In this document: positions 1 through 18,763 of the stretch, one piece after another
Position numbering within the stretch: position 1 is the first letter of the stretch
How the letters are laid out: every line of letters begins with the position of its first letter
DNA from: Endomicrobiales bacterium
GTDB lineage: Bacteria; Elusimicrobiota; Endomicrobiia; Endomicrobiales; CAWCFT01
DNA length: 64,000 bases
NCBI GenBank assembly: GCA_963794945.1
Contig: CAWCFT010000004.1
Span: 352,001-416,000, forward strand
Direction of reading: 5' to 3'
Notes under the pieces: model-generated
What the model was told of the DNA's origin: nothing
What the model saw: only the letters and a program-made list of their open reading frames with translations
Databases searched by the model: none
Made by a program: the position numbers and the translations under genes

Positions 1-1960
1 AATACTTTTCCGCTGTTCTTATGCGCTTCCACGTACTGTAATGTAACATAGAATAATTCGCTGAAGGCTGGAACTTTAATATTGCTCCCATAGACTTTTT
101 TAAGTTTATCGTAATACTTATGCAGGCCCTCTAGAAACGCCCTTGCAGCCACATGCGATTTATTGCTTTCACTGATGCCCCAAAGTTTTTTAAGCGTGTC
201 ATCATGAAATAAGCGATTATAATGATTCGAATAGTAGTTTCTCAAAACCGCCTGAATATCTTTATAACGCTCTTGATACCGGCTTTCCATTTTTCCTAAC
301 AGCTCAAAAAAAGCGTATGAACTCAAATCCGCCGCCAGTTCCGCCGTTGCGCCTACCTCCTCAAAATTTTCGTCGCAATACAGCCAGAATATCCAGTGGC
401 CCAACTCGTGCGCGAGAACGCCAACGAACTGGCTGTCCTTGCCGTATTCTCTAATAATATCATTACGACCTATTTGAAAGTGAGTGCTTGCAATACTGTC
501 AAAATTCTCCATTAATTGCGTAGTGCTCATAATGTCTTTAGCAATGCTTTGAAAATCGTATGGTTGAACCAGCTCCGCCTTTTTAATATAATCATCTTCA
601 TTTACCAATAACCATACAGCCAGGAAATATGTTTTCGCCCTTTCGTTTAACCAGGCGGAATCATCCGGGAACACATTGGCCAAATCCAATTCCGCGGAAT
701 CCAGAACAAGTTTAAGGGCGTGAGGGATAATTATACTTCTGTTTGCTGGAGGGCTTAAACCCGCCGTGTAAAGTATCAATTCTTCAGGCACTCCCAAAGC
801 GTCCTGATTGTTAATCAGCGTCTCAGTTATACGGTCAAAAGAGTCTATTTTAGATAAAATATTATCCGCAAAACGGCTGTCTTTCTTTAACACATTTATT
901 GAATAGTTTTTTATCAGCCATTTGGCCTCGTATACGGATTTGTCTTCCATGCACGAATTAACCATTCCATTAAGATAGGATAGCCTGTCTTCTTTTGTCG
1001 GTTCCACGGGCCCATTTTCCGTAAAGGCCTTGACCTTGCCCTCAATCACACAGGAATCGTAATATGATTTGAGATATTGATAATACTCAGATTCTTTTTT
1101 AATTTCAATTCCTGTTTTTATTCCCGTTAATGACTCCAATAGATCCATTAACATGTTTTTGTGTTCCGCTCTCATTGAATCGGAAGGCGAGTTCAGGTTA
1201 ACACGGTTTGTCAGGAATTCTATCGGGACTGTCAGGAGATACATAGCCGCGTACTTGCCGTTTGAATTTCCTTTCGCGATTTCAAAAAGTATTTTTAAAG
1301 CCTCTATATCATCGAAGCTTGCCGCTCTGTCGCCCAATATTTTAAGGCCGTAGATATCATTCCAACCTTTCATAGCCATATCTTTTACCGGGCCTTTTAT
1401 CAGCCTGCCTATTGCCGCTTCAGCATCACTGTTAAGCCCATTTACGGAAAGAGCCGTAGTTAAGAGCATATAAATGGACAATAGGCGTGGGCCGTCAGCA
1501 GTTACAGAAGCTTCTTCAAGCTCACTTATTACCCTTCTGTCTCCGTTTTTCAATCTCTTTTTGTAGCGTGTTATACGATCATAAAAATCTTCATCGGATT
1601 TTTTCTTGCTTTTCACATAAGCAGAAGCATTCATCAAGTTTATTAAAATTTCTATATTCTTATTGTTGACATCTTTTATTATATTGTTTAACAGCACGAG
1701 TTTCTCAAAATCGGCAAACGACTTACCTTCGTTAATATCCTTCCTCGCTAAACGAATAAATTCTTTAAAATCTTCTTCAAAATCATATGCTGTTTTATAT
1801 TTTTCGATGACTCCTGGAATTCCGATCTTATACGCAAGCATGTATGACATATCCGGGGTCAGCCCGTTGCGGGTCACAATCTTAAAATCATCATTCGGTT
1901 TCTCAGATTGATTTTGTTTCTCTGAATGCGCAAGATTGTGCGGGGCGCCTGATTGGGCGT
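1..1960 (-). CDS. Continuation of the giant protein (frameshifted, open to the window edge), with HExxH zincin module
   Basis: Manual translation: one minus frame is stop-free from ~1980 to 1 (HAQSGAPHNLAHSEKQNQSEKPNDDF...VLAHELGHW...ELAAD...). It overlaps the end of ORF 1903..11007 and is absent from the ORF track, presumably because it has no stop in the window. Confidence 0.8.
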
Positions 1961-4900
1961 GGGTTCTGAGATATATCTGGCTGGTTCTGCTGCTGCATGA
2001 TGACATTTATTATATTGTTAACTAACGATACTTCCACCCCCAAAGCATCTGCAATCTTTTGGAGTTCTTCGTCAGAAAATTGCCAGTTTAAATCTTGATT
2101 GTCTTGCGCAAGGGCGCGAATAACTTCTTGCTTGCTTTCTTCAGTTAATAATCTCAGAGGTATCGCTTCCCTCGCCACATCATAACCACCCCAATTACTG
2201 TATGTCAATCTCTCCGATGTCACTGGATTGACAATGGTTGAATATCCTCCCGGCTCTATCACAATTCCTTCATTTTTCAGCTTTGTAAAATCAAAAGTGA
2301 GTACGACCGGCCTTCCTCCTACCTGTTTTGCCTTGCTTTCACCATAATGGTTCTGAGGCAAAGAGCTAAGGAATATAAACTTTTCTCCTTGCATTGCGTT
2401 TAAATTATCGGTTTTCTGTGGCGTAATATAACCATCTGAATCAAAAATCATATTCCGCACAAGCGCACTTGAAGTAGCGTGTGATTCGGTTTCAGGCAAC
2501 CCGTCTACGAGACTACCATTGTAATTGAACAACTCGGCTTTCTTTTTATTAAAAGCATCTAAGAATTTTTGTAAACGGGCATCAAATTTCCCATTGGCTG
2601 ATTTTTCTGCCGGGTTGGCAACACCAGTGTCAGGCTTGGCTAATGCACCTGCCTGTGGAGTGCTTTCATTAGAAACGGCTTTCCGCTTCAAAACCGTGAA
2701 TATTTTGACAGCGAGAAGTACTGAAATATCCACTATGGCTATAATAGGAGCATTAAAAACACCCGCCGCGGCAAGTATCACCGCCAGCGGAGCCACGTTA
2801 AGAGTGTTGTTGAGGCCTAACCCTGGATTCCCATTATTTGCTCCAATTTCATCAAATTCTACCTTTTCGCTTGGGTTTGAATGAACAAGAGTGATCGCAT
2901 TTATTGTTCTATAATCATATATTATTATCCCTGCTCTTCTTAATCTCCCTAAATCTGACTTAATGATAATAACACCTGGTTTATTCGCATCATAACCTTT
3001 TACTGTGTCTAAACCCTCTTCTCCTACTCCCCAGTAAGAAGCATTCACACCCAATGTGCTCGGCAAACCCGCATATTTCGCGTCTACGGATCTGTAAACG
3101 GGAACGTCATCCGGCATTAACTGACACAACAGAGAATCTACTATTTTTGTCATAATATTATGAACAATATGCTTCTCCATGCTGTCTAAAAGCATTTTTG
3201 TATACATTCCATGAATATCAATCTTATAATATTTCAGCAAGACAGCGTCAATCACATCTGTCACCTGCCTGGCATTCAAATATTTCCCTTTTAACTTCTC
3301 TTGAACTCTAACTCTAATCCTTGCGATCTTTTCCGGATCAGTAAGAACGCTTAACGTTCCGCCATGCTCCTGTTTGAAATATTTATCAACTTCATCTGTG
3401 TATTCCCTTGGAACATCTCTGCCAAACAAATTCTGCAGCACCGGTTCCGTAAATAATCCGTCAGGCTTGGCTGACCCTGTTTCGGAAAGGCTGGGGCCGT
3501 GATTACTATTGTTATTTACCTGCGCAAATATCAGAGAAGCAGAGGGCTGAGTGGTTTGAATAGCGGCGCGTCTGCCGTCAAAAATAATCTCAAACAAGTC
3601 ATATATTTCCCGGTCGTACCTGGCAAGTTCGTCAGGGTGCAAAACATAGGTTTTGAAGAATTCAGCAATGAACTCATCGGCATCCGTCCGCACCGCAGGC
3701 CCGCCATCATATTCGGGGACCAAAAATGTATACTCGTATGCATGCGCGGTAATGGGCTCCGCCTTGGATTTAAAATATTCTTTCTGGCGTTTTTTAAATA
3801 ATTCCGTTATAAGCTTGTGCATCAGCGCGTCTAACTTCTCATCTACAGATGCTTGTTCGGACACTGAGATGTCCGGATTATCCAACAATTTCTTTTCTGA
3901 ACCCGATAGCTTATAACCGTATGTATCCGCCCACTGCCTGAACCGTTTTGCGCTGTAGAGAAACGGCACGTTGAAATATTTCCCTGCCACGCTATGCCCC
4001 AATTCATGGAACAGAGTGTTTGCAATACCCCCAGATGAATTTACATATAGCGTTATAGACCTTCCATCGGGTGAGTAGTTTGCCCTGCCATTATTCTCTA
4101 AAATAATTTCTTTGATGTTGGAATTATACCCTTTGAATTTGAACGGCACAGAAGCCAGTTCCTCGTCTATCTGTATCATTACTGATTTGATACTCTCTAA
4201 ATCCGCGTGGGTCAATAATTTATCTGTAGTAATTCCCATATCTTCGAAATCATCGGCATAATGCAGAGTAATATTAATATCGTACCTATCTTCAAAGTGA
4301 ACTTGTAGTACTGCCCTGAGTTTATCTGGGTCCATCATGCCGGCTTTATCAAGCACTTCCAGCTTCCTGGCTAAATCCCATCGTTTATCAAGCTTCGCTT
4401 CAATCAGCCAGTTATTCAAATACTCTGTATTATTAAATAATGCGTCCCGAACCTTAAATGTATCACGCGGCTGCTTCTTTCCACGGTTGTAATTTATTAT
4501 GAAGGCAACCCGCTCTTCCTCTTTTTCGGCGCGGTCCTTCAATTCAGTGAACGCGTTAATAATATCTTCTGCAATGCCGAGCGATCGCAGATAATCGCTG
4601 TCGGCATAGTAATAATTAAACAGAGCTTCACGCAGTAAAGCCAGCTTCTCCTTATCCCCTTTTAATATTTTATTCGCTTGCCCTGAAACTTCAACCGCGT
4701 GAATAATAAACAACCTCAGCCGGAATTCTATTCTCTTAGACAGCTCCGTGATAAGAGCGGAATCCCTCGCGCTTGCATACCTAAGGTATACGCTTAGCTG
4801 ACGCAATTCGCCCAGCCCTAATCCATGAGATTTTGGAGAATCCAGGAATTGTCTTATTAATTCCTGCGTATAATCCGGGTTGTTCGCGTATATGGAATCT

Positions 4901-7900
4901 TCTATTTCTTTAAGAATATTCTCTTCTGACTTATTTTCTACCACATCTCTTGCTTTCGCTCTTCTTTTCATGATTATCTGCTGAAGGCGCGCTTCATACT
5001 TAAGATTAGAAACAGTGGAATTGATTTTTTTGCGGATAATCTGGATAACAGCGGCAGGAAACAGGAAAAAATCTAACAGGTGTACGACAAGCTCAAATTT
5101 GTTGAGGTTCCGCAGAACAGGTAAAGGCTCCAAAAGCCGGTGTAGAAGCCCGTGCGCCCGCGCGAATGGATTCCTGGACTGACGTTCTTCATCTACCGTC
5201 AGCTTGGTTGTTTTGTTTACTGCCAGTGCAACGCCTTTACCGATCGCAGTAACACCCAATATCGCAATTGCTAGGTTCGTAGTGAAATACGCCAGAGAGC
5301 CCGCATCCAGCCCGAAATAGCTGAACATCGTAAGGCCGATTATTGCCAGCACCTCTAACCCCAAATCTTTGAGGGCTATAAAATTCGGTTTCCGTGTATT
5401 TTCTTTTGTTTTCTGTTGATTTTGTTTTGGCTTAGATTTAACCGGGAAAGTTTCGTATCTCATGACAGGTTTTTTATCGCTAATACTCCATTTCCCTTCA
5501 AGGCTTATCCAGAGAGTCTTTTCCTGAGAATTATTCTTTCCAAAATTATAAAGTGTCACACCGACAAAATTTCCCAATAATTCAGGTTCATTCTTATAAT
5601 ACAATGATGGGAATTGTTTTTCGTCTTTTATCCCCAGCAATGAACAAACCTTGCCGGTATTTTTGGGGTCAGCTAGCATGCCAAAAGCATCGCGCACAAG
5701 TTTCTGCGCTTTAATCTGCGTTTCATCTGCGCCGAACGCTTCAAGCACATTGACATTCTCGCTGTATGCCAAATATTCATCATATAACCTTGTCATTTCA
5801 CCCGATCTTACTTTGGGCCCATTAAGGACATGCCGTAGTTCGTGCGCCGTTCTCACAGCCAGCCATTGCGCCTGTTTATCCGAAGTAATACGGTCAAAAG
5901 CAGGGCCGCTAATAGCAATGATTCGAAGCGACGTATTTGCCACAGCAAAGCTTTCGCTGTCAAATCCTTCCAGGAAAAGCACTTTATAGCCGCTAACCTC
6001 GTCAGCCGTAAATAAACCTTTATCAACCATCAGCTGGTTGGCATCCGCAACGGCTTGCTTATATTTAATACTGTTCGATAAATCAATAGATTTTATTAAT
6101 TGGATTTTTGGGTCTTCAAAACTCTGATTCAACATATTCAATATATCCAACAAGCCATCACTGTAAACAATGTCGCCGATTTCTTGTTTAATGTTTGCCG
6201 GACTGGTTTTATTATTGTTTCCTGTATTTTGAGTGTTCTCGAAATTAGATTTGATTGAATTCCGGGCGAATTTACTCAGGGTTTGCGCATCCAGCCCGAA
6301 ATAGCTGAACATCGCAAGGCCGATTATTGCCAAAACCTCTAACCCCAAATCTTTGAGGGCTATAAAATTCGGGCGCGGGTTTTCTCCTTTCTTCTCAACT
6401 GTGGCTGCCGACTCTTTCAATTCGGCCCCTTTCTTTCGAAATTCGATCGATAGCCCTATATTTTCCTTGATTCCCGGTAATTGAACAAATTGGGCCAATG
6501 TATATTGTTTGCCGTCAATTTTTACGAAAAACTCGTAATCTGTATCCGCTTTAATTGCTGCGCTGGCCAGCGGGGTTCTTCCCATAACCGCCTTGATGAT
6601 CGCTTCTTCGGGCAATTGTATGCCGGCTTTTCTGTTTTCTTCCAGCTCCGGCTTCAGATGTTCTCCTATTTGCCTAAATTCTTCCAGGGCCTGCTCATTA
6701 ATTACATTGCCGCCCTCTATTATGTCCGCGTCTTTGAATACTTGTTTTAGGATGCCAGGCATAAGGCCTTTGCCCTGATAACCTTCATTGAAAAATATCC
6801 CGAAGTCCTTAGCTGTTTTATCTTTGGTTAGCCTGTAATTAGCCCAACCTACTTGCTTTCCCTCCGCATTAATCACTGATATTTTCTTCTTTATCCCTTC
6901 TTCTCCTTCCGGATTTTTTAAATCTTTCAGCTTAAGCGTGTACTCATTGCCATTCTTGTCTTTTATCGTTATAGGCTGTTCTTCGCCAGATGTCAGCGGG
7001 GCGGCTTTGGCTATCAGGTTATAGATAAAATGCGAAAGCGCATACGCCAGATAAACGGCTATCAGGCTGTGGCCAAGCAGGGCTGTCGCAACCGTAGCCG
7101 CGATTATTCCCAACCCGCCAAAAAACCTTGATTTATCAAGTCCTTTCCCCATTAAGGCGTCAGCAATTACCATAGCTAAGTGGATAGGAAAGTCCCATAT
7201 GGCCAGGAAAGGCGCAAGGAATAGTTCCGTAGCACGCTTTGAAAGACCAAACCGTTGTCCAAATTCATAAGTTGAATCAAGCGTAAGGGCATTACCCTTT
7301 GAACCAGATTGAGCCGGGAAAGCCTCTGTACCAGCAGTCGAGACGTTGCGGGTAGGCGCTATATCCGCGCTTTTATTCTCCGGTAATGTAAATATTGCTT
7401 TTTCTTCTGCAGAGAAAATGTCCGGAAAAATATTTTTTTCATTTATAACAGAAAGTATATACTTGATATCTTTTTCAAGATTGTCGACAATCTGGTTTTG
7501 GTTTTCATTTTGGCTCAAACCTTGGCATTGCAGGTTAATAATATGCATGATACTATCAAAATGGCCCTGAAAATTACCATTAGCATCTGGTTTAATATTT
7601 TCCCGAACCATAATATCCAAAGACCTATCCCAAAGAGTTTCATATGATTTCACTGACGCTTTAATTGAACCGTCACCGTTTTCAGTTTTTTCTTCGACGA
7701 CATTATCTCCAAAAAAATCCCCTGGCCTGCCGGCATTAGCTATAACATAGTGCTTAATCAGCAATTCATACACCTTCACAATATGTTTAAGCGCCTTATA
7801 ATCATCCAGCATTTGGGAATACGATCCCTCGCGCACTGCATCGTGTAAAATCAACACTTGTGAACGAAGGCTCTCAAAATCCGTTCTTACAACATGTTCA

Positions 7901-10900
7901 TCTATCATTCCCCGTACCACATAGAATGTCTTGTACGAAGTAAAAAATTCTTTTATTTTTTTCGACATCTCCTGGTTTCCTACTAACTTAAAGAACACAA
8001 AACGTTCAAGTATGTTGCGCATTACATGCTTGCTTTTTGATTCATATGCCTCCGGCGGCAGGCTGAAGATATCTTTTATTTCCGACAAATATATTACCCG
8101 CTTACCAAGCTTCTTTTCGTTACCTATTTCGCCGTATTTTTTATCGAAAAGCGCCATGAGTTCCGCAAGCTCTGGGCTTGGCCGAACGCTGGTTTTTTCA
8201 TAACATTTCTCGATCCAGGCCTGCATCAATTGATTAAGTTCTTCCGTACGTTTCCGTATAGCCGGGCCATCAGCGCCCAAATCATCAATAATAATATCAA
8301 TATCTATATCGCTGTCATCACTATTGCGCGCAAGGCCTCTTGCAACACTACCGGTAAAAAGGAACATAGTTTTATTATCATCAATACCAATGGATTTTGA
8401 GAAATTCGGTTTTTCTTCAGAAAATCTTTCATAAATACGCTTTGAATATTGTTCATTGTATTTGTGGGAAGATAGATCTTTTTCTTTAAAAGAAAAGGTT
8501 TCAACACCAAGTTTGAATGCCCTTTTTAAGGCATCTTCGCGTTCCCTTTTGTGACCAGACAACAGATTGTTCAAGGATGAACCCAGTGTCAGCGGGGCGG
8601 ATTTGAATATCGTGTTGTAGAGCCCGTGGGTCAAAATGTTGCCGGCAACACCTCCAGCCGCTGAAGTGAATACGTTTGTCGTTATACCGAAAACATAAAC
8701 CCCGGCAATAATCATGACGGCCCAGATAGCCGTAATGCCGGCCATGCGCGCGTAATTCTTCCAGGCTTTATCTGCTTTTTCATGGGCATTGTAGAATTTT
8801 ACCGGCCTTAGAGTGTTTAAAAGCTCCCGCGCGCCGATCACTATGCCAACATAAAATTCCACGAGAACCCTGTTGTAGAACCAGTTGATATACCTGTTAT
8901 TTTTGCTTCTGGTGGAATTTTCCCTGATAGTCTTCGCGATATTTTCGTTCTGAGGGAGCACAAGCGTGGGCGTTTCCAGGTCTGACAACCCTGTATTCGT
9001 TTGGTCTATAGAGGAAGAATCGTTCGGGTAGGAAACAGCTCCTGTTTCGGAGTTAAACATAAAGACAAGTTCTTCGGGGTTCTTGCCGTCAATATCAGAT
9101 GTTTTGAAGGCGAACAAATAATTATTGCTGCTGTCAGCAGATCGTTTACAAAACTGGAATACCACCCGCCCAAGCCCTTCTTTTTCGAAAGACAGGAAAT
9201 CATCCTTAAGCTTCTGTTCGATACTCGCCGGTGATTTGCCAATTAGGGCGCTCAATATTTTCTCCGCGTGATCTTTAAGCGCAATATTGGGGTTCGATGA
9301 GCTAAGCTCCTGAAGCACTTTTGCTACCACGAGATCGGAAAGCTTTTCGGCTGGCTTCTCTTCGGAAATAGGCAAAGGCGCGAAGCTTTGGGCAAGTATT
9401 TTTGCCTGATGTTTAACAAGCTCGCTGTAGATAAGGTCGGAAACTTTTGTGTCTTTTGTAATATTGGGCGTCACAACAAAGTATTTGATATTTCTTTGTT
9501 TTAAAAGCTTGCTTATGCCCTCGGTATGGAAACCGCCTGTCACCACTACTATTATATCTTTGGCGTTGTCCAGGGCATTTTTTAGCTTTGATTCTTCAAT
9601 CCCTGATTGGATAGCAGCGCCCTGCGCGGCCGGCTGTTTCGCGACAGCGGTTTTACCTGCCAGCGAACTTGAAGCAGATATATTGTCAAGGAAAACCGTG
9701 TTCCTTTTTATATTCGCCGCGTAGTATTCATCCAGCAGCTGAAAATCTTTTGTTAGAGAATTCAAACTGTCGACAGAAGAATACTTTGACCACAAGCTCC
9801 TGAATTTTGGAAAATTCTCGTTGAAATACACGTAGTCATCGGCCGTAAGGTTATTGTTGAGGTAATTACCGAAATATACAAAAAACGAAGAAAGGAAAGC
9901 TACTTCCAGTTCGCCCATGTCGTTCGAAAGCCCGGAATGTATCTCACTGACCAGCTGTTTTTCTTCCTTGATCATCTCTACCGGGTTCAGCTCCTTGCTT
10001 TTTTCTATGTAGCTAAAGAACTTGTTAAGCTCGGGGAAGTTAACGCCGACCTCTATCTTATACTCCTTTGATATCTTGGCGAGATAGCCGTAAAGTTCAT
10101 CGAGTTTTGAGAAGTTGTCTGTCTTCTCCAGCAGCTGGTTGTACGCCGCGAAGGGCAGGCCCGCCTTGAGCTCAGCCATGTAGCCCTGAAGCTCCAGGTT
10201 AACCCTCTTATAATTGAGCCTTTCGCCCTGGTTCATCAGGTCCAAGTACAGTACAATGTTCCTGAACTTGTTTATGTCGATATCTGACAGATTCCCGAAG
10301 CGGTAACCGGAAGAATTTAATTTTTCAACATATTTTTCAAGCAGTTTGTAATATTTTTTGGGCTCCATCTTGCCGGTTTTGTATTCATTTAGAAGCTTTT
10401 CGAACCTCGCGTTCTGTGAATTGTAATAACGCTCCTTCATTGTTTCAAGCTCGGCCTCAAGCCTGGCTGCTATCCTGGCGTAACGTTCTTTATTTTGAGT
10501 TATCGTGTTCAGGCGTACGAAATTTTCCTTGTAAAGCCTGTAGTCTTCGATGCCTGCGAGTATGTTAGGTTTGCGCGTTAGCACCGAGAAATACTCTGCG
10601 CCGGTGAGCCTGCCCTGGTTTACAAGGTTTTCAGTCATTTCTTTTTGGAAATCCTTGTCCTTTATCCCGGTAAGCCAGGCCGTATCTACGCTACCTGACG
10701 CGCCTTCGATATATATCTTTTTGAGCGGATATTGTTCATCCACCGCTGCTATAACCTTCGCGATGTTTCTCTGGACCTCAGCGTTGCAGTGCAGGTCCTG
10801 GATATTGATAACTACCGCGTCATCCGAACCCGCCGAATACTCCGTCACCCGTCCCGCGGATTGAGGGATAACGGAATCATCCAGAATTCGCTTAAATTCC

Positions 10901-11007
10901 TTGATTGTATGCGTATTGTCAACTGCCGCCTGAACTATACTCGAAAAAACCGAAGAGTACAGGAAGCAGGCTGTTGTTAGGATTGCAGTTAGTTTTTTGA
11001 AATTCAT
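1903..11007 (-). CDS. Giant secreted/membrane multi-domain protein (TraB/TIKI/ChaN-like N-terminus; NTase, GNAT, zincin and ART-like modules)
   Basis: 3034-aa ORF with N-terminal signal peptide. Motifs: IQDLH, IEG, GGFH; GSVARG..DSDID; YQGKGL; HELRH; HELGH..DEFIAE. Several hydrophobic linker segments. Confidence 0.85.
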   Translation of the reverse strand: MNFKKLTAILTTACFLYSSVFSSIVQAAVDNTHTIKEFKRILDDSVIPQSAGRVTEYSAGSDDAVVINIQDLHCNAEVQRNIAKVIAAVDEQYPLKKIYIEGASGSVDTAWLTGIKDKDFQKEMTENLVNQGRLTGAEYFSVLTRKPNILAGIEDYRLYKENFVRLNTITQNKERYARIAARLEAELETMKERYYNSQNARFEKLLNEYKTGKMEPKKYYKLLEKYVEKLNSSGYRFGNLSDIDINKFRNIVLYLDLMNQGERLNYKRVNLELQGYMAELKAGLPFAAYNQLLEKTDNFSKLDELYGYLAKISKEYKIEVGVNFPELNKFFSYIEKSKELNPVEMIKEEKQLVSEIHSGLSNDMGELEVAFLSSFFVYFGNYLNNNLTADDYVYFNENFPKFRSLWSKYSSVDSLNSLTKDFQLLDEYYAANIKRNTVFLDNISASSSLAGKTAVAKQPAAQGAAIQSGIEESKLKNALDNAKDIIVVVTGGFHTEGISKLLKQRNIKYFVVTPNITKDTKVSDLIYSELVKHQAKILAQSFAPLPISEEKPAEKLSDLVVAKVLQELSSSNPNIALKDHAEKILSALIGKSPASIEQKLKDDFLSFEKEGLGRVVFQFCKRSADSSNNYLFAFKTSDIDGKNPEELVFMFNSETGAVSYPNDSSSIDQTNTGLSDLETPTLVLPQNENIAKTIRENSTRSKNNRYINWFYNRVLVEFYVGIVIGARELLNTLRPVKFYNAHEKADKAWKNYARMAGITAIWAVMIIAGVYVFGITTNVFTSAAGGVAGNILTHGLYNTIFKSAPLTLGSSLNNLLSGHKREREDALKRAFKLGVETFSFKEKDLSSHKYNEQYSKRIYERFSEEKPNFSKSIGIDDNKTMFLFTGSVARGLARNSDDSDIDIDIIIDDLGADGPAIRKRTEELNQLMQAWIEKCYEKTSVRPSPELAELMALFDKKYGEIGNEKKLGKRVIYLSEIKDIFSLPPEAYESKSKHVMRNILERFVFFKLVGNQEMSKKIKEFFTSYKTFYVVRGMIDEHVVRTDFESLRSQVLILHDAVREGSYSQMLDDYKALKHIVKVYELLIKHYVIANAGRPGDFFGDNVVEEKTENGDGSIKASVKSYETLWDRSLDIMVRENIKPDANGNFQGHFDSIMHIINLQCQGLSQNENQNQIVDNLEKDIKYILSVINEKNIFPDIFSAEEKAIFTLPENKSADIAPTRNVSTAGTEAFPAQSGSKGNALTLDSTYEFGQRFGLSKRATELFLAPFLAIWDFPIHLAMVIADALMGKGLDKSRFFGGLGIIAATVATALLGHSLIAVYLAYALSHFIYNLIAKAAPLTSGEEQPITIKDKNGNEYTLKLKDLKNPEGEEGIKKKISVINAEGKQVGWANYRLTKDKTAKDFGIFFNEGYQGKGLMPGILKQVFKDADIIEGGNVINEQALEEFRQIGEHLKPELEENRKAGIQLPEEAIIKAVMGRTPLASAAIKADTDYEFFVKIDGKQYTLAQFVQLPGIKENIGLSIEFRKKGAELKESAATVEKKGENPRPNFIALKDLGLEVLAIIGLAMFSYFGLDAQTLSKFARNSIKSNFENTQNTGNNNKTSPANIKQEIGDIVYSDGLLDILNMLNQSFEDPKIQLIKSIDLSNSIKYKQAVADANQLMVDKGLFTADEVSGYKVLFLEGFDSESFAVANTSLRIIAISGPAFDRITSDKQAQWLAVRTAHELRHVLNGPKVRSGEMTRLYDEYLAYSENVNVLEAFGADETQIKAQKLVRDAFGMLADPKNTGKVCSLLGIKDEKQFPSLYYKNEPELLGNFVGVTLYNFGKNNSQEKTLWISLEGKWSISDKKPVMRYETFPVKSKPKQNQQKTKENTRKPNFIALKDLGLEVLAIIGLTMFSYFGLDAGSLAYFTTNLAIAILGVTAIGKGVALAVNKTTKLTVDEERQSRNPFARAHGLLHRLLEPLPVLRNLNKFELVVHLLDFFLFPAAVIQIIRKKINSTVSNLKYEARLQQIIMKRRAKARDVVENKSEENILKEIEDSIYANNPDYTQELIRQFLDSPKSHGLGLGELRQLSVYLRYASARDSALITELSKRIEFRLRLFIIHAVEVSGQANKILKGDKEKLALLREALFNYYYADSDYLRSLGIAEDIINAFTELKDRAEKEEERVAFIINYNRGKKQPRDTFKVRDALFNNTEYLNNWLIEAKLDKRWDLARKLEVLDKAGMMDPDKLRAVLQVHFEDRYDINITLHYADDFEDMGITTDKLLTHADLESIKSVMIQIDEELASVPFKFKGYNSNIKEIILENNGRANYSPDGRSITLYVNSSGGIANTLFHELGHSVAGKYFNVPFLYSAKRFRQWADTYGYKLSGSEKKLLDNPDISVSEQASVDEKLDALMHKLITELFKKRQKEYFKSKAEPITAHAYEYTFLVPEYDGGPAVRTDADEFIAEFFKTYVLHPDELARYDREIYDLFEIIFDGRRAAIQTTQPSASLIFAQVNNNSNHGPSLSETGSAKPDGLFTEPVLQNLFGRDVPREYTDEVDKYFKQEHGGTLSVLTDPEKIARIRVRVQEKLKGKYLNARQVTDVIDAVLLKYYKIDIHGMYTKMLLDSMEKHIVHNIMTKIVDSLLCQLMPDDVPVYRSVDAKYAGLPSTLGVNASYWGVGEEGLDTVKGYDANKPGVIIIKSDLGRLRRAGIIIYDYRTINAITLVHSNPSEKVEFDEIGANNGNPGLGLNNTLNVAPLAVILAAAGVFNAPIIAIVDISVLLAVKIFTVLKRKAVSNESTPQAGALAKPDTGVANPAEKSANGKFDARLQKFLDAFNKKKAELFNYNGSLVDGLPETESHATSSALVRNMIFDSDGYITPQKTDNLNAMQGEKFIFLSSLPQNHYGESKAKQVGGRPVVLTFDFTKLKNEGIVIEPGGYSTIVNPVTSERLTYSNWGGYDVAREAIPLRLLTEESKQEVIRALAQDNQDLNWQFSDEELQKIADALGVEVSLVNNIINVIMQQQNQPDISQNPRPIRRPAQSCAFRETKSI
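5302..5388. repeat. 87-bp intragenic direct repeat, copy 1
   Basis: Matches 6286-6372 with 3 mismatches; encodes PNFIALKDLGLEVLAIIGL(T/A)MFSYFGLDA. Confidence 0.95.
6286..6372. repeat. 87-bp intragenic direct repeat, copy 2
   Basis: Matches 5302-5388 with 3 mismatches. Confidence 0.95.
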
Positions 11008-11086: not shown

Positions 11087-11575
11087 CTATACTCTAATGG
11101 CAAAACCTATCTCCCACGGAAGATTTGACTTCGCCAAGAATACAAGATATTGAAGAAATAGACAGTTAACACATTTTATAAATCCCGGCGGCGGGAATAC
11201 CTGAGGTATGACAAAACACGCGGGGTCAATCCCAGGCACTGACGCCTTCTGCACTGTTCCGCGGTCCCGCATTATACTTGAAGCACTGTTGTCTGTACTG
11301 GTTATGATATTTTTTGAAGAACAATTATCGCGGGAAGAGCTTGGAGACGGAAAAGGGTTTAACTTAGGCACAAGCGGGTTATCATTACAGACTTGAAGAT
11401 TCACAGCGCTTAATGGGTTGAATACTGAAGAGAAAAGCTTTGCCATCTGAGAATTTCCGGACTTTACAGCCGGGATAAGGCAAACATCCGGAATTACCGC
11501 TGAGAAAGCGGCTATCCCGGAATTGAGCAATATACAGAACGCCAAAATGACTCCGGCTGTTTTTCTCATTTTCAC
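11087..11575 (-). CDS. Signal-peptide-bearing leader protein upstream of the giant gene
   Basis: 162 aa; basic-hydrophobic N-terminus ending AAFSA; Ser/Pro-rich middle; C-terminal PPPG...LAKSNLPW. Confidence 0.65.
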   Translation of the reverse strand: MKMRKTAGVILAFCILLNSGIAAFSAVIPDVCLIPAVKSGNSQMAKLFSSVFNPLSAVNLQVCNDNPLVPKLNPFPSPSSSRDNCSSKNIITSTDNSASSIMRDRGTVQKASVPGIDPACFVIPQVFPPPGFIKCVNCLFLQYLVFLAKSNLPWEIGFAIRV

Positions 11576-11763: not shown

Positions 11764-12981
11764 TCAAACTACAGCCGAAATGCTGACTGCGCAATTCTCA
11801 CCGGCTGTTATAGGTATCGTTGAAACTTGAACGTTATATCTTTTACCTTTAAAATCCAGTTTGAAACCTCCTTTCTGGGGCCTCTTGTTCTCGGCTGCGT
11901 CCAAACCTGAAAGTATCTTGTAGCGCGACACTATAGTTCCGCCAGTTTTGGCCATGACCTGGAATGATTTCTGCTGCCCAAAACGTATAGATGAAAGCGG
12001 GTTCCTGGGCTCGATAAGAATACTGTTTTCACCTTTGATCATAGCCTTAGAAAGCAAAACATTTGACAACTTCATTATAGCCGTAGATTCCCATTTATTT
12101 GACGTATTCGCTTCTTTGAACGGACTTATAATGTTAAAACCGCCGGCGGGCACTCCAGGGCTAACCCTGTCTTTGTCAAAAAGCAGGTCAATGTTAGCTG
12201 GTTCGGTAACCGCGAAACAGTAGTCCGCCACGCTTTTAAGAAGGCTTACAAGGCCCTCGTTAAAGGGTTCGGCTAAGATGAAACACGGGTCACCTGCCGC
12301 GTCCCTTGTGGCAACGACCCTGTTGTTTTGAAGGAAGGAAACTGGCAATAACCCGAGCTGGACCGACTCGGGATCAACCACCGGGAAATATTTCATTTTA
12401 TAGAATTCAGCGAGACTTTCAGCAATGTGATCTGGTTGAATATTGAGCTTTTCGACGTTCAGGTAAAAATCAGACGGGCTGGAATTCAGTATCTCCTTTT
12501 GCCCCGCTTCTATTTCACTTTTTCCGGCCAGATACTTAAGGAACTCAAGAAACGGCCCGTCGGCCGGTTGCTGCTTAAGAGCTCCCGCCTTTTGCAGAAA
12601 TTCACTCCACCGGCTGCCGGTATCGATGTTCTTGGCAACGCTGTTAATAAGGTCAGTCTTTCTAAACGGTTTGACCATATAATCGACAACCCCGTAAGAA
12701 AAAGCGTTAGGCTTATCGTTGTCCTGCCCGGCGCTCGCGAAAATTATGGGTACGGCAACCTCGCCCTCTTCTTTTCTCAGGCCCGCGCAGAACTCGAATC
12801 CGTTCATTTTGGGCATCATTATATCGAGTATTATGAGGTCAGGCCTGAAGCTCTTGAATTTCTCCAGGCCGTCTAACCCGTTCTCGGCAGTTTCAATAAT
12901 ATAATCCATATCTTTAAAACATGCCCTGTATATGTCCAGAATATCCGTGTCATCATCAATTACAAGTATGCGCTTCCCCAT
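11764..12981 (-). CDS. Response regulator receiver fused to GspE/PilB N-terminal domains, lacking the ATPase domain
   Basis: REC (ILVIDDD, LDIMMP, KPF); T2SSE_N-like segment; degenerate PilB motifs SILIEP, RYKILSGLD..KRPQKG, VSTIP..GEN; no Walker A. Confidence 0.75.
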   Translation of the reverse strand: MGKRILVIDDDTDILDIYRACFKDMDYIIETAENGLDGLEKFKSFRPDLIILDIMMPKMNGFEFCAGLRKEEGEVAVPIIFASAGQDNDKPNAFSYGVVDYMVKPFRKTDLINSVAKNIDTGSRWSEFLQKAGALKQQPADGPFLEFLKYLAGKSEIEAGQKEILNSSPSDFYLNVEKLNIQPDHIAESLAEFYKMKYFPVVDPESVQLGLLPVSFLQNNRVVATRDAAGDPCFILAEPFNEGLVSLLKSVADYCFAVTEPANIDLLFDKDRVSPGVPAGGFNIISPFKEANTSNKWESTAIMKLSNVLLSKAMIKGENSILIEPRNPLSSIRFGQQKSFQVMAKTGGTIVSRYKILSGLDAAENKRPQKGGFKLDFKGKRYNVQVSTIPITAGENCAVSISAVV

Positions 12982-13102: not shown

Positions 13103-15127
13103 CTACAAGTAATAATCAAAGTTCTTTTCGGTGCGCTGGAACCTTCTTATCTTGAAAATGTGAGCGCATGTTTTTGAGGGGTCGAGTTTTACAAAGTTCC
13201 TGGGGCCGTTCCAAAGATACCTCTCTCCGCCAAGAAGGTCGTGTACCTGAAATGGCTTCTTGTCGGAGATGCCGAACTTCTCAAGCGGTATCTCTATCCA
13301 CCCGGACTGCGCCCACTTCGTGTCTATGTTCACGATGGTCAGCAATATCTCCGAATAGTCATCGCTATACTTCGCGTAGCATATGAGAGAATCATTATCC
13401 ACCTTCAGGAATTCCAGATTATAATCGTACTGCAAGGCGGCGTTAGTGTTCCTTATGTGGTTGACCTTGGTTATAAGTGGCTTAAGGCTATCTGGGTCGG
13501 CGAGCTCCCAGTGCTTGATCTCGTATTTTTCCGAATCCAGGTACTCTTCGCTTTTAGGGGCTACCGGCTTGTTTACACAGAGCTCGAAAGCCGGGCCGTA
13601 TATCCCGTAGTTCGCACCGAGGGTTGCCGCGAGAAGGAAACGCACCTTGAAAGCGTTAACGCCGCCAAGCTGGAGGTATTCCGTCAGTATGTCTGGTGTG
13701 TTGGTCCAGAGGTTTGCCCTGAAAAATTCTTTCACTTCTGTTTGGGTTATCTCGGTAATGAACTGGGTAAGCTCCCATTTGTTGTTGCGCCATGGAAAAT
13801 AGTTATATGACTGCGAAAAACCGAGTTTAGCGAGGCGGTACAAAAGCTTCGGCCTGGTAAAGGCCTCCGCAAGAAAGATCACATCTGGGTTATCCTTCTT
13901 TATGCCGGTAAGCATCCACTCCCAGAACGACAGGTCTTTCGTGTGCGGATTGTCCACTCTAAATATCTTTACGCCCTGCTTGATCCAGTAATCGATTATG
14001 TTCTTAAGCTCGTCCCAGAGCTCCTGCCAGTTCTCGGTCTCGAAATCTATGGGGTATATGTCCTGGTATTTTTTCGGCGGATTTTCGGCGTACTGGATTG
14101 TGTTGTCGGGCCGTTTGCGGAACCACTCCGGGTGCTCTTTTACGTACGGGTGGTCGGGTGAGCACTGGTACGCGATATCGAGAGCAATAGATATGCCCAG
14201 TTCACCGGCTTTTGCTATCAGCTCCTTAAAATCTTCCAGTGTCCCAAGCTGCGGATTTATTGCATAATGGCCGCCTTCCTTTCCGCCAATGGCCCATGGG
14301 CTCCCCACTGCCCCCTTCTCGGCCACTGTCGAATTATTTTTGCCCTTCCGGAATTTTATGCCTATCGGGTGTATTGGCGGCAGATAAAGAACATTGAAAC
14401 CCATTTCCGAAATGTACGGCAACCGAGCTATCACGTCCTTGAATGTGCCGTGCTTACCGGGAACTGTGCTCGTGGAGCGCGGAAAAAGCTCATACCATGC
14501 TCCAAAACGGGCTATTTTCGGGTCAACGATTACCGTCAGCTCTTTGTACATTACGGCTTTTGACCTGTCCGGGTAGCGGGCCATTATTTTGCTGAGCTCT
14601 TCAGACAAAGCGGCCTTGTTCGCTTCAGCTTTGTTGCGTTTGTCATTAAGTTTTTCTATTATCTTGTTAAGTTTTTCCTTGTCTTTAGGCAGCGCTTTCT
14701 TTTGTACAGCACTGATGAACTCGAGCCCGATGAGCAGGTCGACCGAGACATCCTGGTCGGCATCAACCCTCTTTTTAAAATCTCTCTGCCACGATTTGAA
14801 ATGGTCAATCCAGGCCTGAAGCGTGTATTGCCAGCGCCCAATCTCGGCAACCTTGAACTCCCCTTCCCACCTGTCGTTCTCGGTGTGGGTCATTGGAGTT
14901 TCAGACCACTTTACCTTGCCTTCTTTGCGGTAAAGCAGTACGGCAGTAAGTTCATTATTGCCATCGACAAAAATGTCCGCTTCCACTTTTATGGTGTCTT
15001 CGACTATCCTTTTAATGGGAAACCTGCCGCCGTTGATCTTAGGCTGAACGCTTTCTATCTGAACGCGCATCCTTGCCTTGTCGCTAGGTGTGTTCTCAAT
15101 GACCTTTTTGACGGCTTGCTTTGCCAT
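13103..15127 (-). CDS. glgE: Alpha-1,4-glucan:maltose-1-phosphate maltosyltransferase
   Basis: GH13_3 motifs WYELFPRS, YLPPIHPIG, ENPPKKYQDIYP, FRVDNPHTK, FLAEAFTRP. Confidence 0.95.
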   Translation of the reverse strand: MAKQAVKKVIENTPSDKARMRVQIESVQPKINGGRFPIKRIVEDTIKVEADIFVDGNNELTAVLLYRKEGKVKWSETPMTHTENDRWEGEFKVAEIGRWQYTLQAWIDHFKSWQRDFKKRVDADQDVSVDLLIGLEFISAVQKKALPKDKEKLNKIIEKLNDKRNKAEANKAALSEELSKIMARYPDRSKAVMYKELTVIVDPKIARFGAWYELFPRSTSTVPGKHGTFKDVIARLPYISEMGFNVLYLPPIHPIGIKFRKGKNNSTVAEKGAVGSPWAIGGKEGGHYAINPQLGTLEDFKELIAKAGELGISIALDIAYQCSPDHPYVKEHPEWFRKRPDNTIQYAENPPKKYQDIYPIDFETENWQELWDELKNIIDYWIKQGVKIFRVDNPHTKDLSFWEWMLTGIKKDNPDVIFLAEAFTRPKLLYRLAKLGFSQSYNYFPWRNNKWELTQFITEITQTEVKEFFRANLWTNTPDILTEYLQLGGVNAFKVRFLLAATLGANYGIYGPAFELCVNKPVAPKSEEYLDSEKYEIKHWELADPDSLKPLITKVNHIRNTNAALQYDYNLEFLKVDNDSLICYAKYSDDYSEILLTIVNIDTKWAQSGWIEIPLEKFGISDKKPFQVHDLLGGERYLWNGPRNFVKLDPSKTCAHIFKIRRFQRTEKNFDYYL

Positions 15128-15203
15128 TATTGTTACTCCTCTCAGTGATAAGGCGTAAGTGATAAGTGAACAACAAGATTAGCATTTTTATTCTGCTTAC
15201 TTC

Positions 15204-16429
15204 TTACCCCTTTTTAATAAGTTCCTTATAAAAATCTATGGTCTTTGCCGCGATGCTGGCCCAGCTGAAATGGTCAACAACACGCTGACGGGCTTTACGG
15301 CCCATTTGTTTTATTTTTTCATCCGAACAGGCTATTGAGTTTACGGCCGTGGCCAGATCCAGAGCGAATTTTTCAGGGTCCAACGGCTCAGCCTCAGTTT
15401 CACTTTCTGGCCGCTACCGGAACGAGTAGCCCGGTCTCGCCGTGAACAACGACCTCAGGTATCCCACCAACGGCAGACGCAACAACCGGTATCTGGCAGG
15501 CCATAGCTTCTAGGTTTATTATGCCGAACGGCTCGTAAACCGAGGGGCAGACAAAAACGCACGCCTGCGAATATATGGCCACGAGGTCGTCATGCGTCAC
15601 CATGTTTGGTATCCAGATTATTTTGCTTTTGGAATCTTTCCTGGCCTTTTCGATATTTGTTTTCATCTCTTCGCCGATCTCTTTCGTGTCCGGAGCGCCT
15701 GCGCAGAGTACTACCTGGCTGCCGGGCTTCAAATATTTTATTGCATTGACCAGGTGGATAATGCCCTTCTGCCGTGTTATTCTGCCGACGAAAAGGATGT
15801 AGGGGATGTTTTTGTCTACGCCGTATTTGTCGAGAACTTTCGGGTTTATTGTAGGCTTGAACTCATCTAAGTCTATGCCGTTGTGGATTATCCTTACTTT
15901 ATCGGGGTTTACGCCGTAGAGGTTGTGGACGTCATTTTTCATAGAAGCAGAGACAGCTATCACACCGTCTGCATTCTCATAAGCAGTCTTTTCTATCCAA
16001 GAGCTGGCAAAATAAGCAGAGCCAAGCTGTTCGGCTTTCCAGGGACGGTGTGGTTCCAGTGAGTGAGTGGTCAGCACCAGAGACGCCTTTAACAATTGTT
16101 TGGATAAGAGGCCCGCGAAATGGCTGTACCAGGTATGGCAATGGACGATGTCCGCCTCGCCCAATTCACCGAGACATAAGTATATCGCGGAACATCGTGT
16201 CCAAAAACTTGTCGTGCCTCGGGTCTTTCGCCGAGAACTTGTATTTAGGGTCAACACCCAGGACCGACAGGCCGCCCTTATCTTCTTTCTGTCCGCCGAA
16301 ACAGAGGACTTTTACCGAATGCCTTCCGCCGTCAGCCTTGACGAGCTCTTTGGTCAGGTGCTCTACGTGGACTCCGGCGCCGCCGTAAATGTTTGGGGGA
16401 TATTCGTTGGTGAGTATGGCTATTTTCAT
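15204..16429 (-). CDS. glgA: GT4 glycogen synthase / maltose-1-phosphate synthase (GlgA/GlgM type), two frameshifts
   Basis: Fragments MKIAILTNEYPPNIYGGAGVHV, HCHTWY..HSLEP..WKAEQLG, GRITRQKG, PSVYEPFGIINLEAMAC; C-terminal FSWASIA in another frame; adjacent to glgE. Confidence 0.85.
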
Positions 16430-16679: not shown

Positions 16680-18763
16680 CTACTTTATCAGCCGTTTGAA
16701 ATTGAACTTCTCGGTGCCGGGCGCGTTCTCGCTTGTGTTGTATGAATTTTTCAGCGTGTCCCACTGCTGGCGGCCTGGTTTTATAAAACAGAGGTCGATA
16801 CCGAAGTTGGATACACCTATCTCCTTGAACTTCCTTCGGGCAGTAAATATGCTGACCGGCTTTTCGGGTATCAAAAGCGCGAGGCCTGACTCGAAGACAG
16901 GCTTAAACGAGGTGCCGTCGCTTTCGTCGTGGGCCGATGAGCAGTCTTTTATAAGTTCTTCTGTGAGCATCTCTTTCGTTATGAGCCTGGACCTTACTAC
17001 TGGAGGATACCCGTAGAGGTAAACGACAATAAATTTGCCGAGCCCCGGCCCGCTCATTTTCCGGAGGTTGAGGAAATCGTCTTCCCATGACGCGGTAAAA
17101 TACTTGATGCCCAGATCCGATAGGAAAGGACGACGTAAGCGTTCCAGGTGTAAAGGAAAGGGCCGGCTGAGAGCTCAACATCCATGCCTTCGAACAAGCC
17201 GAACTGTGAGACGTTGTTTAGCACCCACTTGTGGATGCCTTCAGCGGCCATCTTGTTTATTGACTGTTTGAAAAGCGGCAGCTCACGCTGGCCTATAAAT
17301 GGCGGCAGTTCACCCGCAATTTGTTCAGCCAAACCGTTCGGAAGTTTGGCCGCGAGATGAAGGTTGTCTTTTGTGAGATAAAAAACGTATCTGTTATTCT
17401 TTGACGGCCGAGGCAGCACATCCAGCCACTCGATATTATCAAACCTTACCCAGAGGCTGTCGCCTTTTTCATCCGCAACAATTTGTTTCTTGGATTCTTT
17501 CCACTTATTTGAGATAAGCGCGGTGTATGCCTGGGTCGGCTGACTCAAACCTGTCAGATCTTGGGTTATTTTTCTTGTACTCTTCGTAAACAGAGTCTAT
17601 CTCTTTTTCTATGTCTTTCTGGTCGTATGCCGTATCAACTGTTTTAAATACTGGGTTGCCCCGGACAAACTCGCCGGCCTTACCGAACGGGATAATATAT
17701 TTAGAGCCGTCTTTGGAGAATTCCTTTACCTTGAAAGCCACAGTGTTGTCGGTACCGGGGTTAGATATCCTGAGCCTGTCACCCTCGACTATCTCGCCCG
17801 CGCCTTCTACAGGCTCAACCACTAAATTGCCGTTCGACACGTCCGTGATGTTCCCGATGAGGTTTCCCAGGCACTGAGCTTTGCCGGGTTGAAACATGTT
17901 GTCGTCACGTCCCGAAAATAGGCAGGCCGTTTTTTCCCTTGCCATGTCTCCAGAAAGTATTTTTTTCACTTCTGCGAGCGCGTTAGAAAAATCGCTTTCG
18001 GAAGCGTCTATTAGCATTCGGTATGCCTTTACAACTCTGTACACATACTCGCTGCTTCTCATGCGGCCTTCGATCTTGAGAGAGGCTATGCCTATGCTTT
18101 TTAGCTTGCCCACGTGTTCGGCAAGCTCCAGGTCCCTGGGCGAAAATATATAGCCGCGGTTCTTGCCGTTCTGCCAGAGCCGCCTGCAGGGCTGTGTGCA
18201 CCGCCCGCGGTTGCCGCTAAGCCGCCTATGAAACTCGAGAAGAGGCACATACCCGATAGAGAAAAACAAAGGGCGCCGTGCCCGAAAACCTCTATCCCTA
18301 TAGGCGAGCCGTTGGCTATGATCTTCAGCTCCGCGAACGAAAGCTCCCTAGCCATTATGGCGCGCTTAAAACCGTTCTTGGACAGAAAGTCCACGCCCAT
18401 GCGGTTGTGGACCGCCATCTGCGTGCTCGCGTGGAGCGCTATGTCAGGGAAATATTTTCTTATTATATCGGAAAGCCCTAAGTCCTGAACAATTACCGCG
18501 TCCGGAGAGAGCTGGTCAATGTAGGATACGCGTTTTACGACGTCGCTGATCTCTTCGTGTTTTATGAGGGTGTTCAGGGCAAGGTAGACCTTTACGCCGC
18601 TGTTCTTGGCATGGTCCATTAGCACTCGCAGGTCAAAGAGGTTTATGTTGGAGGCGGAAATCCTCGCGTTGAAATCCGGAACGCCTATATAAACAGCGTC
18701 GGCTCCGGCGCGTATAGCTGTTATAAATGACTCTTTCGAGCCGACTGGGGCTAGCAATTCCAT
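16680..18763 (-). CDS. U32-family protein (RNA hydroxylation, RlhA/TrhP-like), split by ~3 frameshifts
   Basis: MELLAPVGS, GADAVY, HASTQ, ARELS, HGALCFS, NRGRCTQPCRR, SLKIEGRMR across four overlapping minus ORFs. Confidence 0.85.

Follow-up and report, generated by a model that had tools for sequence, protein, structure and literature searches.

A giant modular protein, most likely membrane-threaded, in an Endomicrobia-type bacterium and its family with a conserved TIKI-like head

MARTX toxins carry glycine-rich RTX repeats at both ends, a cysteine protease domain activated by inositol phosphate and dedicated type I secretion genes; they are not known to have a Sec signal peptide or some 20 transmembrane (TM) helices. 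Giant membrane-threaded multi-enzyme proteins have been described in the Omnitrophota and other PVC-group bacteria (West-Roberts et al. 2023, bioRxiv 10.1101/2023.11.21.568195), and a 'multi-enzyme metabolic cluster' class of giant proteins has been reported (bioRxiv 10.64898/2026.06.07.730766). Very large genes are already noted for the Elusimicrobiota (bioRxiv 10.1101/2023.11.21.568195), a phylum that is among those richest in proteins of more than 5000 amino acids (aa), none of them assigned to COG (PMC11573180). Here we analyzed a gene that begins on the minus strand of a 64,000-nucleotide (nt) stretch of contig C4 (hereafter the window, C4:352001-416000; window position 1 is C4 352001) in the assembly of an uncultivated Elusimicrobiota (Endomicrobia-type) bacterium (19 contigs, 2.9 Mb). 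The part lying in the window is probably the first, N-terminal third of a single modular gene of ~31.8 kb, in which we infer the continuity of the first two reading frames; this estimate applies jointly to the single gene, the reading of its frame breaks as assembly errors, the family defined by its head domain and the modular, membrane-threaded protein. The general kind to which it belongs, giant TM-rich multi-enzyme proteins, is already published, and its likeness to MARTX toxins is one of layout and apparent head fold class only.

The giant protein resembles those of the PVC group (bioRxiv 10.1101/2023.11.21.568195) in exceeding 10,000 aa and in having a signal peptide and many TM helices (here ~10,590 codons if read through, a signal-peptide-like start and ~20 TM-like segments). 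In both, many unrelated and strongly diverged enzyme domains are tiled with none dominating, most of the length is unannotated, and the topology is puzzling for cofactor-dependent enzymes. According to the same source, 'most' Omnitrophota giants carry divergent SecA DEAD/preprotein-binding domains; Pfam scans of the frames of the present gene gave no match to the features of PVC giants SecA-DEAD, dockerin, C39 or S8. The family described here differs in its own TIKI-like head, of which no description was found in the passages on the PVC giants, in its 7-12 paralogues per genome and in the linker repeats that bracket its modules. No description of a head-defined family with a TIKI-like head and repeat-bracketed modules was found in the accessible portions of the literature searched. 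With MARTX toxins the giant has in common unrelated enzyme modules in a variable array and, apparently, the head fold class of the effector RRSP (PMC6254334), whereas the Sec-type signal peptide and the ~20 TM-like helices set it apart.

The gene was traced as a chain of seven open reading frames (ORFs) on the same strand, f1 to f7, of 3034, 1110, 1531, 2792, 1549, 222 and 471 codons. The first, f1, runs from window 11007 to 1903 with its stop codon at 1903-1905; f2 lies in a different frame and overlaps f1 by 104 nt. All consecutive frames overlap, by 11-104 nt and with no gap between them, and the chain spans 31,771 nt, of which 20.8 kb lie beyond the window start, f7 ending 246 nt before rplM/rpsI. 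None of the seven frames is interrupted by an in-frame stop, and two are longer than 2,700 codons. The total of ~10,590 codons holds provided that the six breaks are errors. An initial annotation of the window had proposed a single protein of more than 3,600 aa that runs past the window edge; the chain does continue past the edge, and the single frame has to be corrected, as the 3034-aa frame f1 ends at its stop codon and f2 is in another frame. P0003, the closest relative, is a single ORF of 6545 aa collinear with f1 1-807, f2 327-709, f4 262-508 and the tail; f1 1-807 and P0003 1-809 are 54% identical (BLASTP). The frame f2 and its junction with f1 lie in the window as follows.

3..2006, minus strand: frame f2, first 668 of 1110 codons, the remainder lying past the window start; HELGH at 396-410; residues 327-709 match an internal module of P0003, and Pfam M48 and M78 match with E of 0.06-0.08 only.
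1903..2006, minus strand: frame break f1/f2, where the two frames overlap by 104 nt in low-complexity sequence rich in Q/N/P (ORF map); no homologue or read crosses it.

Judged from sequence, the signal peptide and the ~545-aa head define a phylum-wide, multi-copy family. Both had been recognised in the initial annotation, and both were borne out, the former as a signal-peptide-like N-terminus.

10927..11007, minus strand: start codon and signal-peptide-like N-terminus, aa 1-27 (K4 K5, hydrophobic core, VQA/A), read by eye from the translation; conserved in the 22-sequence head alignment.
9298..10926, minus strand: conserved head domain, aa 28-570, an alpha/beta core split by a ~300-aa helical insertion; seven genome copies, family search, AlphaFold model.

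In all alignments of paralogues and homologues, the head stops near residue 540-570. Seven heads are present in this genome (28-47% identity), each at the start of a long frame chain, and the seven loci sum to 146 kb, or 5.0% of the assembly. When the first 720 residues were searched against 1.84 billion representative proteins, 6980 matches were obtained at E<=1e-3, of which 598 reach E<=1e-30; in the 150 matches listed, the alignment nearly always begins in the first few dozen residues, in proteins of 268-7833 aa. Intact frames with the same head reach 11,814 aa elsewhere. A search with one genome per species returned 182 relatives; among the best 80 of these 182, 79 bear titles that name the Elusimicrobiota, the Endomicrobia or a genus of that group, and one is titled a Bacteroidota metagenome-assembled genome. 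The head (E<=1e-10) was found in 98 of 401 sampled Elusimicrobiota genomes, and a complete single-contig genome of 1.8 Mb carries 12 head loci, whose intact frames measure 1976-9030 aa and sum to ~134 kb. Its distribution is patchy in a genus of ~1-Mb genomes (13 of 44), and all sampled genomes of several ~2-Mb genera carry it (14/14, 6/6, 5/5 and 3/3); a correlation of head copy number with genome reduction or lifestyle may exist.

Profile searches gave neither a Pfam match nor a PDB sequence match for the head. In the AlphaFold model (predicted local distance difference test, pLDDT, 80.5; predicted template modelling score, pTM, 0.75), the strands of the alpha/beta core are at 52-71, 98-107, 150-153, 484-491 and 508-514, and the helical insertion is at 156-446. 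VIA-align against 48,161 chains returned ChaN (Z 8.1), EreC (7.8), BcR135 (7.5), HopBA1 (6.7), the BcR136-type 2qgm (6.3) and PMT (6.2). In a second-look VIA search, the top six rows all belonged to the TIKI superfamily (Z 8.1-6.7, 156-193 aligned residues; second BcR135 row 6.8), Z values of 6.7-8.1 being in the middling range for the tool. This superfamily includes PMT, HopBA1, Bcr135, ChaN and the MARTX effector RRSP, in which the 2His/2Glu set is E3900, H3902, E3930 and H4030 (PMC6254334). The head model appears to have an alpha/beta core with a parallel sheet, as do Tiki, TraB/PrgY, ChaN, the erythromycin esterases, BcR135/136, HopBA1, PMT C2 and RRSP. Invariant residues in the 22-sequence alignment are D71, H73, E101, G102, E138, E154, R165, N341, E348, R435, G491, G492 and H494. 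Four of these, D71, H73, E101 and H494 (22 of 22 sequences), each stand directly after a predicted core strand, and in a comparison by sequence, D71-x-H73, E101 and H494 follow the RRSP order with the same 28-residue spacing from His to Glu. The head departs from the superfamily in its ~300-aa insertion and in its fixed N-terminal position on giant proteins. Weighing against the assignment, the best Z is only 8.1, the first acidic position of the motif holds Asp instead of Glu, and Foldseek against the PDB gave no match at E<=1e-3 (EreC at rank 2, probability 0.41). Because the Z scores are middling and the residues were compared by sequence, we call the model TIKI/ChaN/erythromycin-esterase-like and do not take the head for a proven member. 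Owing to the TIKI-like fold and the retained D-x-H...E...H set, the head is probably a hydrolase. The insertion (residues 154-452) weakly resembles the periplasmic four-helix sensor domains of TorS, McpS and McpZ, with Z of 5.2-5.9, which is below what is meaningful for helical bundles.

Past the head, f1 consists of modules split by hydrophobic linkers, as the initial annotation had described. Five regions are TM-like by hydropathy (aa 714-806, 1262-1333, 1547-1575, 1875-1993 and 2734-2775). The modules were searched with Pfam and NCBIfam, as whole frames and as eight separate modules, and none inside the window reached a Pfam gathering score.

8887..9297, minus strand: post-head region, aa 571-707, common only to the closest relative P0003 (BLASTP); no Pfam family.
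8590..8886, minus strand: linker L1, 2-3 TM-like helices by hydropathy, aa 708-806, ending ...YNTIFKSAPLT; the end motif occurs again at L2.
7225..8589, minus strand: module M1, nucleotidyltransferase-like, aa 807-1261, with the motif GS-x13-DxD at 8281-8352; Pfam NTP_transf_2 and Polbeta at E ~0.03, below gathering score.
6994..7224, minus strand: linker L2, 2-3 TM-like helices by hydropathy, aa 1262-1338; a second copy, 63% identical, lies in f4, 5.6 thousand aa downstream.
6370..6993, minus strand: module M2, GNAT-like, aa 1339-1546, with YQGKGL (motif-A-like) at 6763-6780; Pfam Acetyltransf_1 scores 17.6 bits (E 0.0049), the cut-off being 20.7.
6286..6372, minus strand: copy 1 of an 87-nt direct repeat, coding the single-helix linker L3 (PNFIALKDLGLEVLAIIGLAMFSYFGLDA); repeat search, family D1, 97% identity.
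5386..6282, minus strand: module M3, HExxH module with a predicted zincin fold, aa 1576-1874, with HELRH at 5830-5844 and a Glu 18 residues past the second His; homologues, model, fold search.
5302..5388, minus strand: copy 2 of the 87-nt direct repeat, coding the first helix of linker L4; repeat search.
5029..5385, minus strand: linker L4, three TM-like helices by hydropathy, aa 1875-1993.
3508..5028, minus strand: module M4, aa 1994-2500, a zincin only by its HELGH motif, at 3994-4008.
2809..3507, minus strand: module M5, aa 2501-2733, no family; the first of two modules earlier called ADP-ribosyltransferase (ART)-like.
2683..2808, minus strand: linker L5, a two-helix hairpin by hydropathy, aa 2734-2775; an 83% identical copy lies in f2 beyond the window.
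1906..2682, minus strand: module M6, aa 2776-3034, no family; the second module earlier called ART-like.

The motifs named in the initial annotation (GS-x13-DxD, YQGKGL, HELRH and two HELGH) are thus all present, and the assignments built on them fared unequally. For the nucleotidyltransferase and GNAT modules the motifs hold; the Pfam matches are below threshold, and neither M1 nor M2 has a PDB sequence match. The two ART-like modules found no backing: M5 has no Pfam family and no PDB sequence match, and the protein atlas was uninformative for it, and M6 has no significant Pfam or PDB match. Among the three proposed zincins, the HELRH module M3 was supported at fold level, and the two HELGH modules rest on their motif. 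One of these, M4, has no Pfam match and no PDB sequence match, and no relative of it turned up in the 121 other class genomes; its nearest named protein-atlas clusters (zincin-like, M90 and ATLF, at 0.90-0.92) give a weak lead. The HELGH module of f2 is likewise a candidate zincin by motif alone.

Relatives of M3 were found in 13 of the 121 other class genomes, always within long frames. In an alignment of 14 rows, E148 and E169 are invariant and H147 and H151 are kept in 13. The AlphaFold model of M3 (pLDDT 73.8) gave no Foldseek match against the PDB at E<=1e-3; its best rows were SjiH (probability 1.00) and selecase (0.97), followed by BlaR1, PprI and HtpX, with E of only 0.05-0.5. With VIA-align, 9 of the 11 top rows were HExxH proteins (Z 7.5-5.0), among them SjiH (7.5), ChlB-HExxH (7.4), the zincin-like 3e11 (5.8) and BlaR1 (5.7). 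A profile of M3 searched against PDB sequences retrieved HtpX only, at E 0.039. A zincin fold with HExxH and a downstream third ligand is therefore supported for M3 by model and alignment; peptidase chemistry is not certain, because the two best fold matches are oxygenase-related HExxH proteins. In the M3-like module of one relative (L111:1210-2109), AYEASR stands in place of AHExxH and both zinc-binding His are gone, so that it looks like an inactivated copy within another giant protein.

The chain beyond the window adds further modules. A YrbL/protein-kinase-like module scores just below the Pfam cut-off, repeats match those of P0060 that bear a winged helix-turn-helix (wHTH), and a PolyA_pol head of CCA/poly(A)-polymerase type is at or above cut-off. 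Past the last TM cluster comes a membrane-free stretch of ~2,900 aa with modules resembling GT5 glycogen synthase, GH77 and GDE_C; the matches to Glyco_transf_5, GH77 and GDE_C are at or above the Pfam cut-off and lie at C4:333225-338500, the C-terminal end of the giant itself. The order along the protein is nucleotidyltransferase-like, GNAT-like, three HExxH modules, two unknowns, kinase-like, wHTH-like repeats, CCA/poly(A)-polymerase-type head, GT5-like, GH77 and GDE. The tail of the membrane-free stretch is common to P0003, with the C-terminal 680 aa conserved, and a paralogue on contig C1 likewise ends with GH77 and GDE. In both giants of this genome, the GH77 match takes in only the first 257-270 of 465 profile positions; because it is limited to the N-terminal half of the profile, the catalytic half may have been lost or have diverged. 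Better-scoring stand-alone GH77, GDE and GT5 genes elsewhere in the genome rule out that the alpha-glucan modules of the giant are the only copies in the cell; these modules are thus extra copies. The f7 tail has no PDB sequence match and no second copy in the genome, and among the 150 representatives listed it matches only P0003 and P0004; a tail conserved across the family was accordingly rejected.

Module content turns over rapidly in this family. Past the head, the seven paralogues have in common only linkers and a few modules, and what P0003 has in common with the giant is the head, three blocks and the tail, not the ~8,000 aa between them. The M3-like module starts at 767, 835, 855, 864, 1256 and 2181 aa in six relatives and at ~1620 aa here. 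Twelve other family members were scanned: kinase, HATPase, methyltransferase, APH, GH94, deaminase, HAD and HTH families were found among them, and none in 5 of the 12. The 87-nt direct repeat flanks M3 in frame, the two copies being spaced by 984 nt, which is 328 codons; homologous recombination between them would consequently remove or add exactly one module. Events of this type at the repeated linkers may reshuffle modules between paralogues and species. The initial annotation had suggested collecting paralogues by the N-terminal domain and comparing their modules and linkers: module content does vary and linkers are repeated within the gene, while the linker motifs did not prove to be family-wide. 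A cleavage motif common to the linkers was considered and rejected, as KxAPLT, NFIALKDLG and APLAVIL are essentially confined to this gene among 182 family sequences; being gene-specific, they do not form a cleavage signal of the whole family. Such fast replacement of modules suggests that the protein is involved in interactions with other cells and not in core metabolism.

Hydropathy places ~20 TM-like segments across the protein, clustered in the linkers, and among the 99 family representatives that reach 1500 aa or more, 79 have such segments as well. With ~20 of them behind a Sec-type signal peptide, a membrane-threaded protein fits better than a secreted one, and the product is most likely a Sec-inserted, membrane-threaded modular protein. 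The Sec machinery would carry the head across the inner membrane by means of the signal peptide; each linker would then act as a stop-transfer or start-transfer element, the chain would be stitched through the inner membrane, and the modules would be tethered on one face of the membrane or the other. The flanks of L1 are rich in Lys/Arg, which would fit three helices there and a cytoplasmic M1. Three points count against this picture. Firstly, topology was judged by hydropathy alone, and the helix count per linker is ambiguous and yields no full topology. Secondly, the nucleotidyltransferase, GNAT, kinase and glycogen-type modules need cytoplasmic cofactors, which fits the cytoplasm of the producer or of a target. 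Thirdly, no RNA run is among the public runs listed as containing the locus.

The initial annotation had instead envisaged an exported polyvalent effector with a MARTX-like layout. Such a precursor would be exported and cut by its own zincins, by the TIKI-like head or in a host-activated step, and its enzymes would act inside a host or prey cell as those of MARTX or of the actinobacterial multi-toxins; we regard this as unlikely. The nucleotidyltransferase, GNAT, zincin and kinase-like chemistries are typical of effectors, and relatives carry Ser/Thr kinase, deaminase, methyltransferase and APH modules. Extreme module turnover, modules with no detected relative and many paralogues per genome make up the usual pattern of conflict genes. 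The head fold class appears to be that of RRSP, PMT C2 and the type III effector HopBA1 (PMC6254334), and giant multi-toxin proteins are known in Streptomyces (SACTE_5178, 13,652 aa; PMC3482391). However, the ~20 hydrophobic helices that follow the Sec signal should stop transfer and make a soluble secreted toxin harder to reconcile with the sequence, and the wHTH-like repeats, the CCA/poly(A)-polymerase head and the three alpha-glucan modules of the same gene are not classic toxin warheads, so that the description of the modules as toxin-typical applies to a part of them only. No support was found for ART modules, and the gene-specific linker motifs provide no family-wide cleavage site. The MARTX comparison itself held in one respect, the variable array of domains, whose contents differ among the seven paralogues and P0003; the likeness is one of layout and gives no evidence of descent. 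No RTX/haemolysin-type repeat family appeared in Pfam scans, whether of all seven frames or of individual modules, even with E values as lax as 1-5. Peptidase_C80 had no Pfam match in any frame, although a highly diverged form is possible. No type I secretion genes adjoin the gene, its neighbours being a 162-aa ORF and a REC-MshEN-T2SSE-N protein upstream and rplM and rpsI downstream.

Actinobacterial giant multi-toxin and polymorphic toxins (Zhang et al. 2012, PMC3482391) are likewise long, with multiple enzymatic domains including metallopeptidases and with recombination-driven variety. In contrast to them, the giant has no immunity gene following it, its variable parts are internal with a C-terminal tail conserved with P0003, and TM linkers separate its modules in place of RHS, filamentous-haemagglutinin or other stalk repeats. 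Two statements of the initial annotation agree with this: no RTX, RHS or CdiA-type repeat was matched in Pfam, and no small immunity ORF flanks the gene, whose true end adjoins rplM and rpsI. One may also imagine a 'cellular polyprotein', a Sec-threaded chain of a dozen or more exchangeable enzyme cassettes whose TIKI-like head and zincins would cleave it at the membrane linkers, exposing or releasing strain-specific enzymes on both faces of the envelope against hosts, prey or competitors, with exchange through the repeated linker DNA; we consider this speculation quite unlikely.

The extent of the gene depends on its six frame breaks, all of which we read as assembly errors of the single-base type, because housekeeping genes of the same assembly are split in the same way; for f1/f2 this is by inference only. 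Firstly, four of the six breaks are spanned, in sequence alignments, by intact single proteins from other metagenomes. The f3/f4 break is spanned by P0005 (2708-3304, then 3308-3554), P0077 and P0105. The f4/f5 break, which falls inside the GT5-like module, is spanned by P0086 (903-1300, then 1304-1666) and P0058. P0003 spans both f5/f6 and f6/f7 (5740-5884, 5879-6081 and 6081-6544), and its end coincides with that of f7. Secondly, one public run contains the locus (share of words 0.10, contigs of 150-240 nt). At f2/f3, one of its short-read contigs (99%+ identity) aligned over 179 nt with 1 mismatch and ended inside the 74-nt overlap; it differs from the assembly by one base, with the sign that puts f2 and f3 in register, and no other indel was seen across 16 aligned short-read pieces. 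Thirdly, just downstream of the giant gene in the same assembly (L002, C4:312001-332000), GltB is spread over at least five overlapping frames and type III GlnA over two. The gene for a U32 peptidase (window 17054-18763, minus strand) is split into ORFs 18101-18763 and 17505-18269, which cover positions 3-116 and 109-230 of the Pfam profile, respectively; MalQ on contig C17 is likewise split. A nine-frame locus of 35.8 kb in the same genome, found by frame walk, starts with the same head domain.

A methylation motif was considered as the cause of the breaks. Words containing GCGC occur 9 times in the six overlaps (C4:332624-354006) against 2.06 expected, and GGCGCC 2 times against 0.14. At 695 same-strand frame junctions genome-wide, however, the GCGC excess is 1.29-fold only, and A5 runs are 2.13-fold enriched.

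Several observations weigh against a single gene. The read support at f2/f3 is a single contig of depth 3.5, in which the difference lies 11 nt from the end. The f1/f2 break, the sole one inside the window part of the gene, is crossed by no homologue and no read, the public run not covering the place; the stop that closes f1 is genuine, and the ATG with which f2 begins comes immediately behind a stop in the frame of f2. In homologue searches with the flanking parts, M6 retrieved only itself from 122 class genomes (the source genome included); f2 residues 1-330 likewise matched no protein of 610-1943 aa other than their own, and those of 1944-5000 aa yielded no match. At this place, two genes or a real frameshift may exist. 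More generally, f1 would be a complete 3034-aa protein and the downstream frames independent large genes of an operon, a reading that the stop of f1, the ATG of f2 and the lack of a relative for the first 330 residues of f2 to show continuity would favour. We hold it to be decidedly improbable, as homologues or a read bridge all but one of the six junctions and the frames overlap with no intergenic space. Moreover, f2 has no signal peptide or head and yet has TM linkers, including the one that matches an f1 linker at 83% identity, and P0003 unites an f1-like head, an f2-like module and the tail in one ORF. Decay of a disused giant gene by real frameshifts, with which six breaks in 31.8 kb and several modules lacking relatives would agree, is very improbable given seven frames free of in-frame stops (two above 2,700 codons), the like breakage of the essential genes gltB and glnA in this assembly and the short-read contig that contradicts one break.

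If one gene with assembly-error breaks is accepted, error-prone long-read assemblies would show such genes as strings of overlapping ORFs, which leads to undercounting. A single recognisable head marks thousands of giant modular proteins in a phylum rich in huge proteins with no assigned function; its plausible hydrolase active site is mutable and assayable, and the repeated linkers bracketing modules suggest a route of module reshuffling. The family takes up 5-7% of a genome, with 146 kb in the present 2.9-Mb assembly and at least 134 kb in the complete 1.8-Mb genome. Should the modules act on other cells, bacteria of gut and soil with small genomes would devote 5-7% of their DNA to a hypervariable arsenal of an unstudied kind; should they act at the membrane of the producer itself, this would be an unusual form of enzyme tethering.

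Upstream of the giant, the 162-aa ORF (window 11087-11575) belongs to no family and was not found upstream of 86 other heads, and was thus discarded as a conserved neighbour. Two genes upstream of the giant, at window 11764-12981 (minus strand), is a 405-aa protein with a receiver domain and a weak MshEN match; it covers the first 109 of 370 profile positions of the type II/IV secretion ATPase and is without the ATPase core. A GlgE-type maltosyltransferase and a GT4/GT5-like gene follow at window 13103-16257 (minus strand), and alpha-glucan genes thus stand on both sides of the variable region. Further away, window 22740-27813 (minus strand) holds a gene for a YaiO-type outer-membrane barrel, then a 611-aa ORF of no family, a pair of short frames that overlap, and a family 2 glycosyltransferase; the segment may be an exopolysaccharide export locus.

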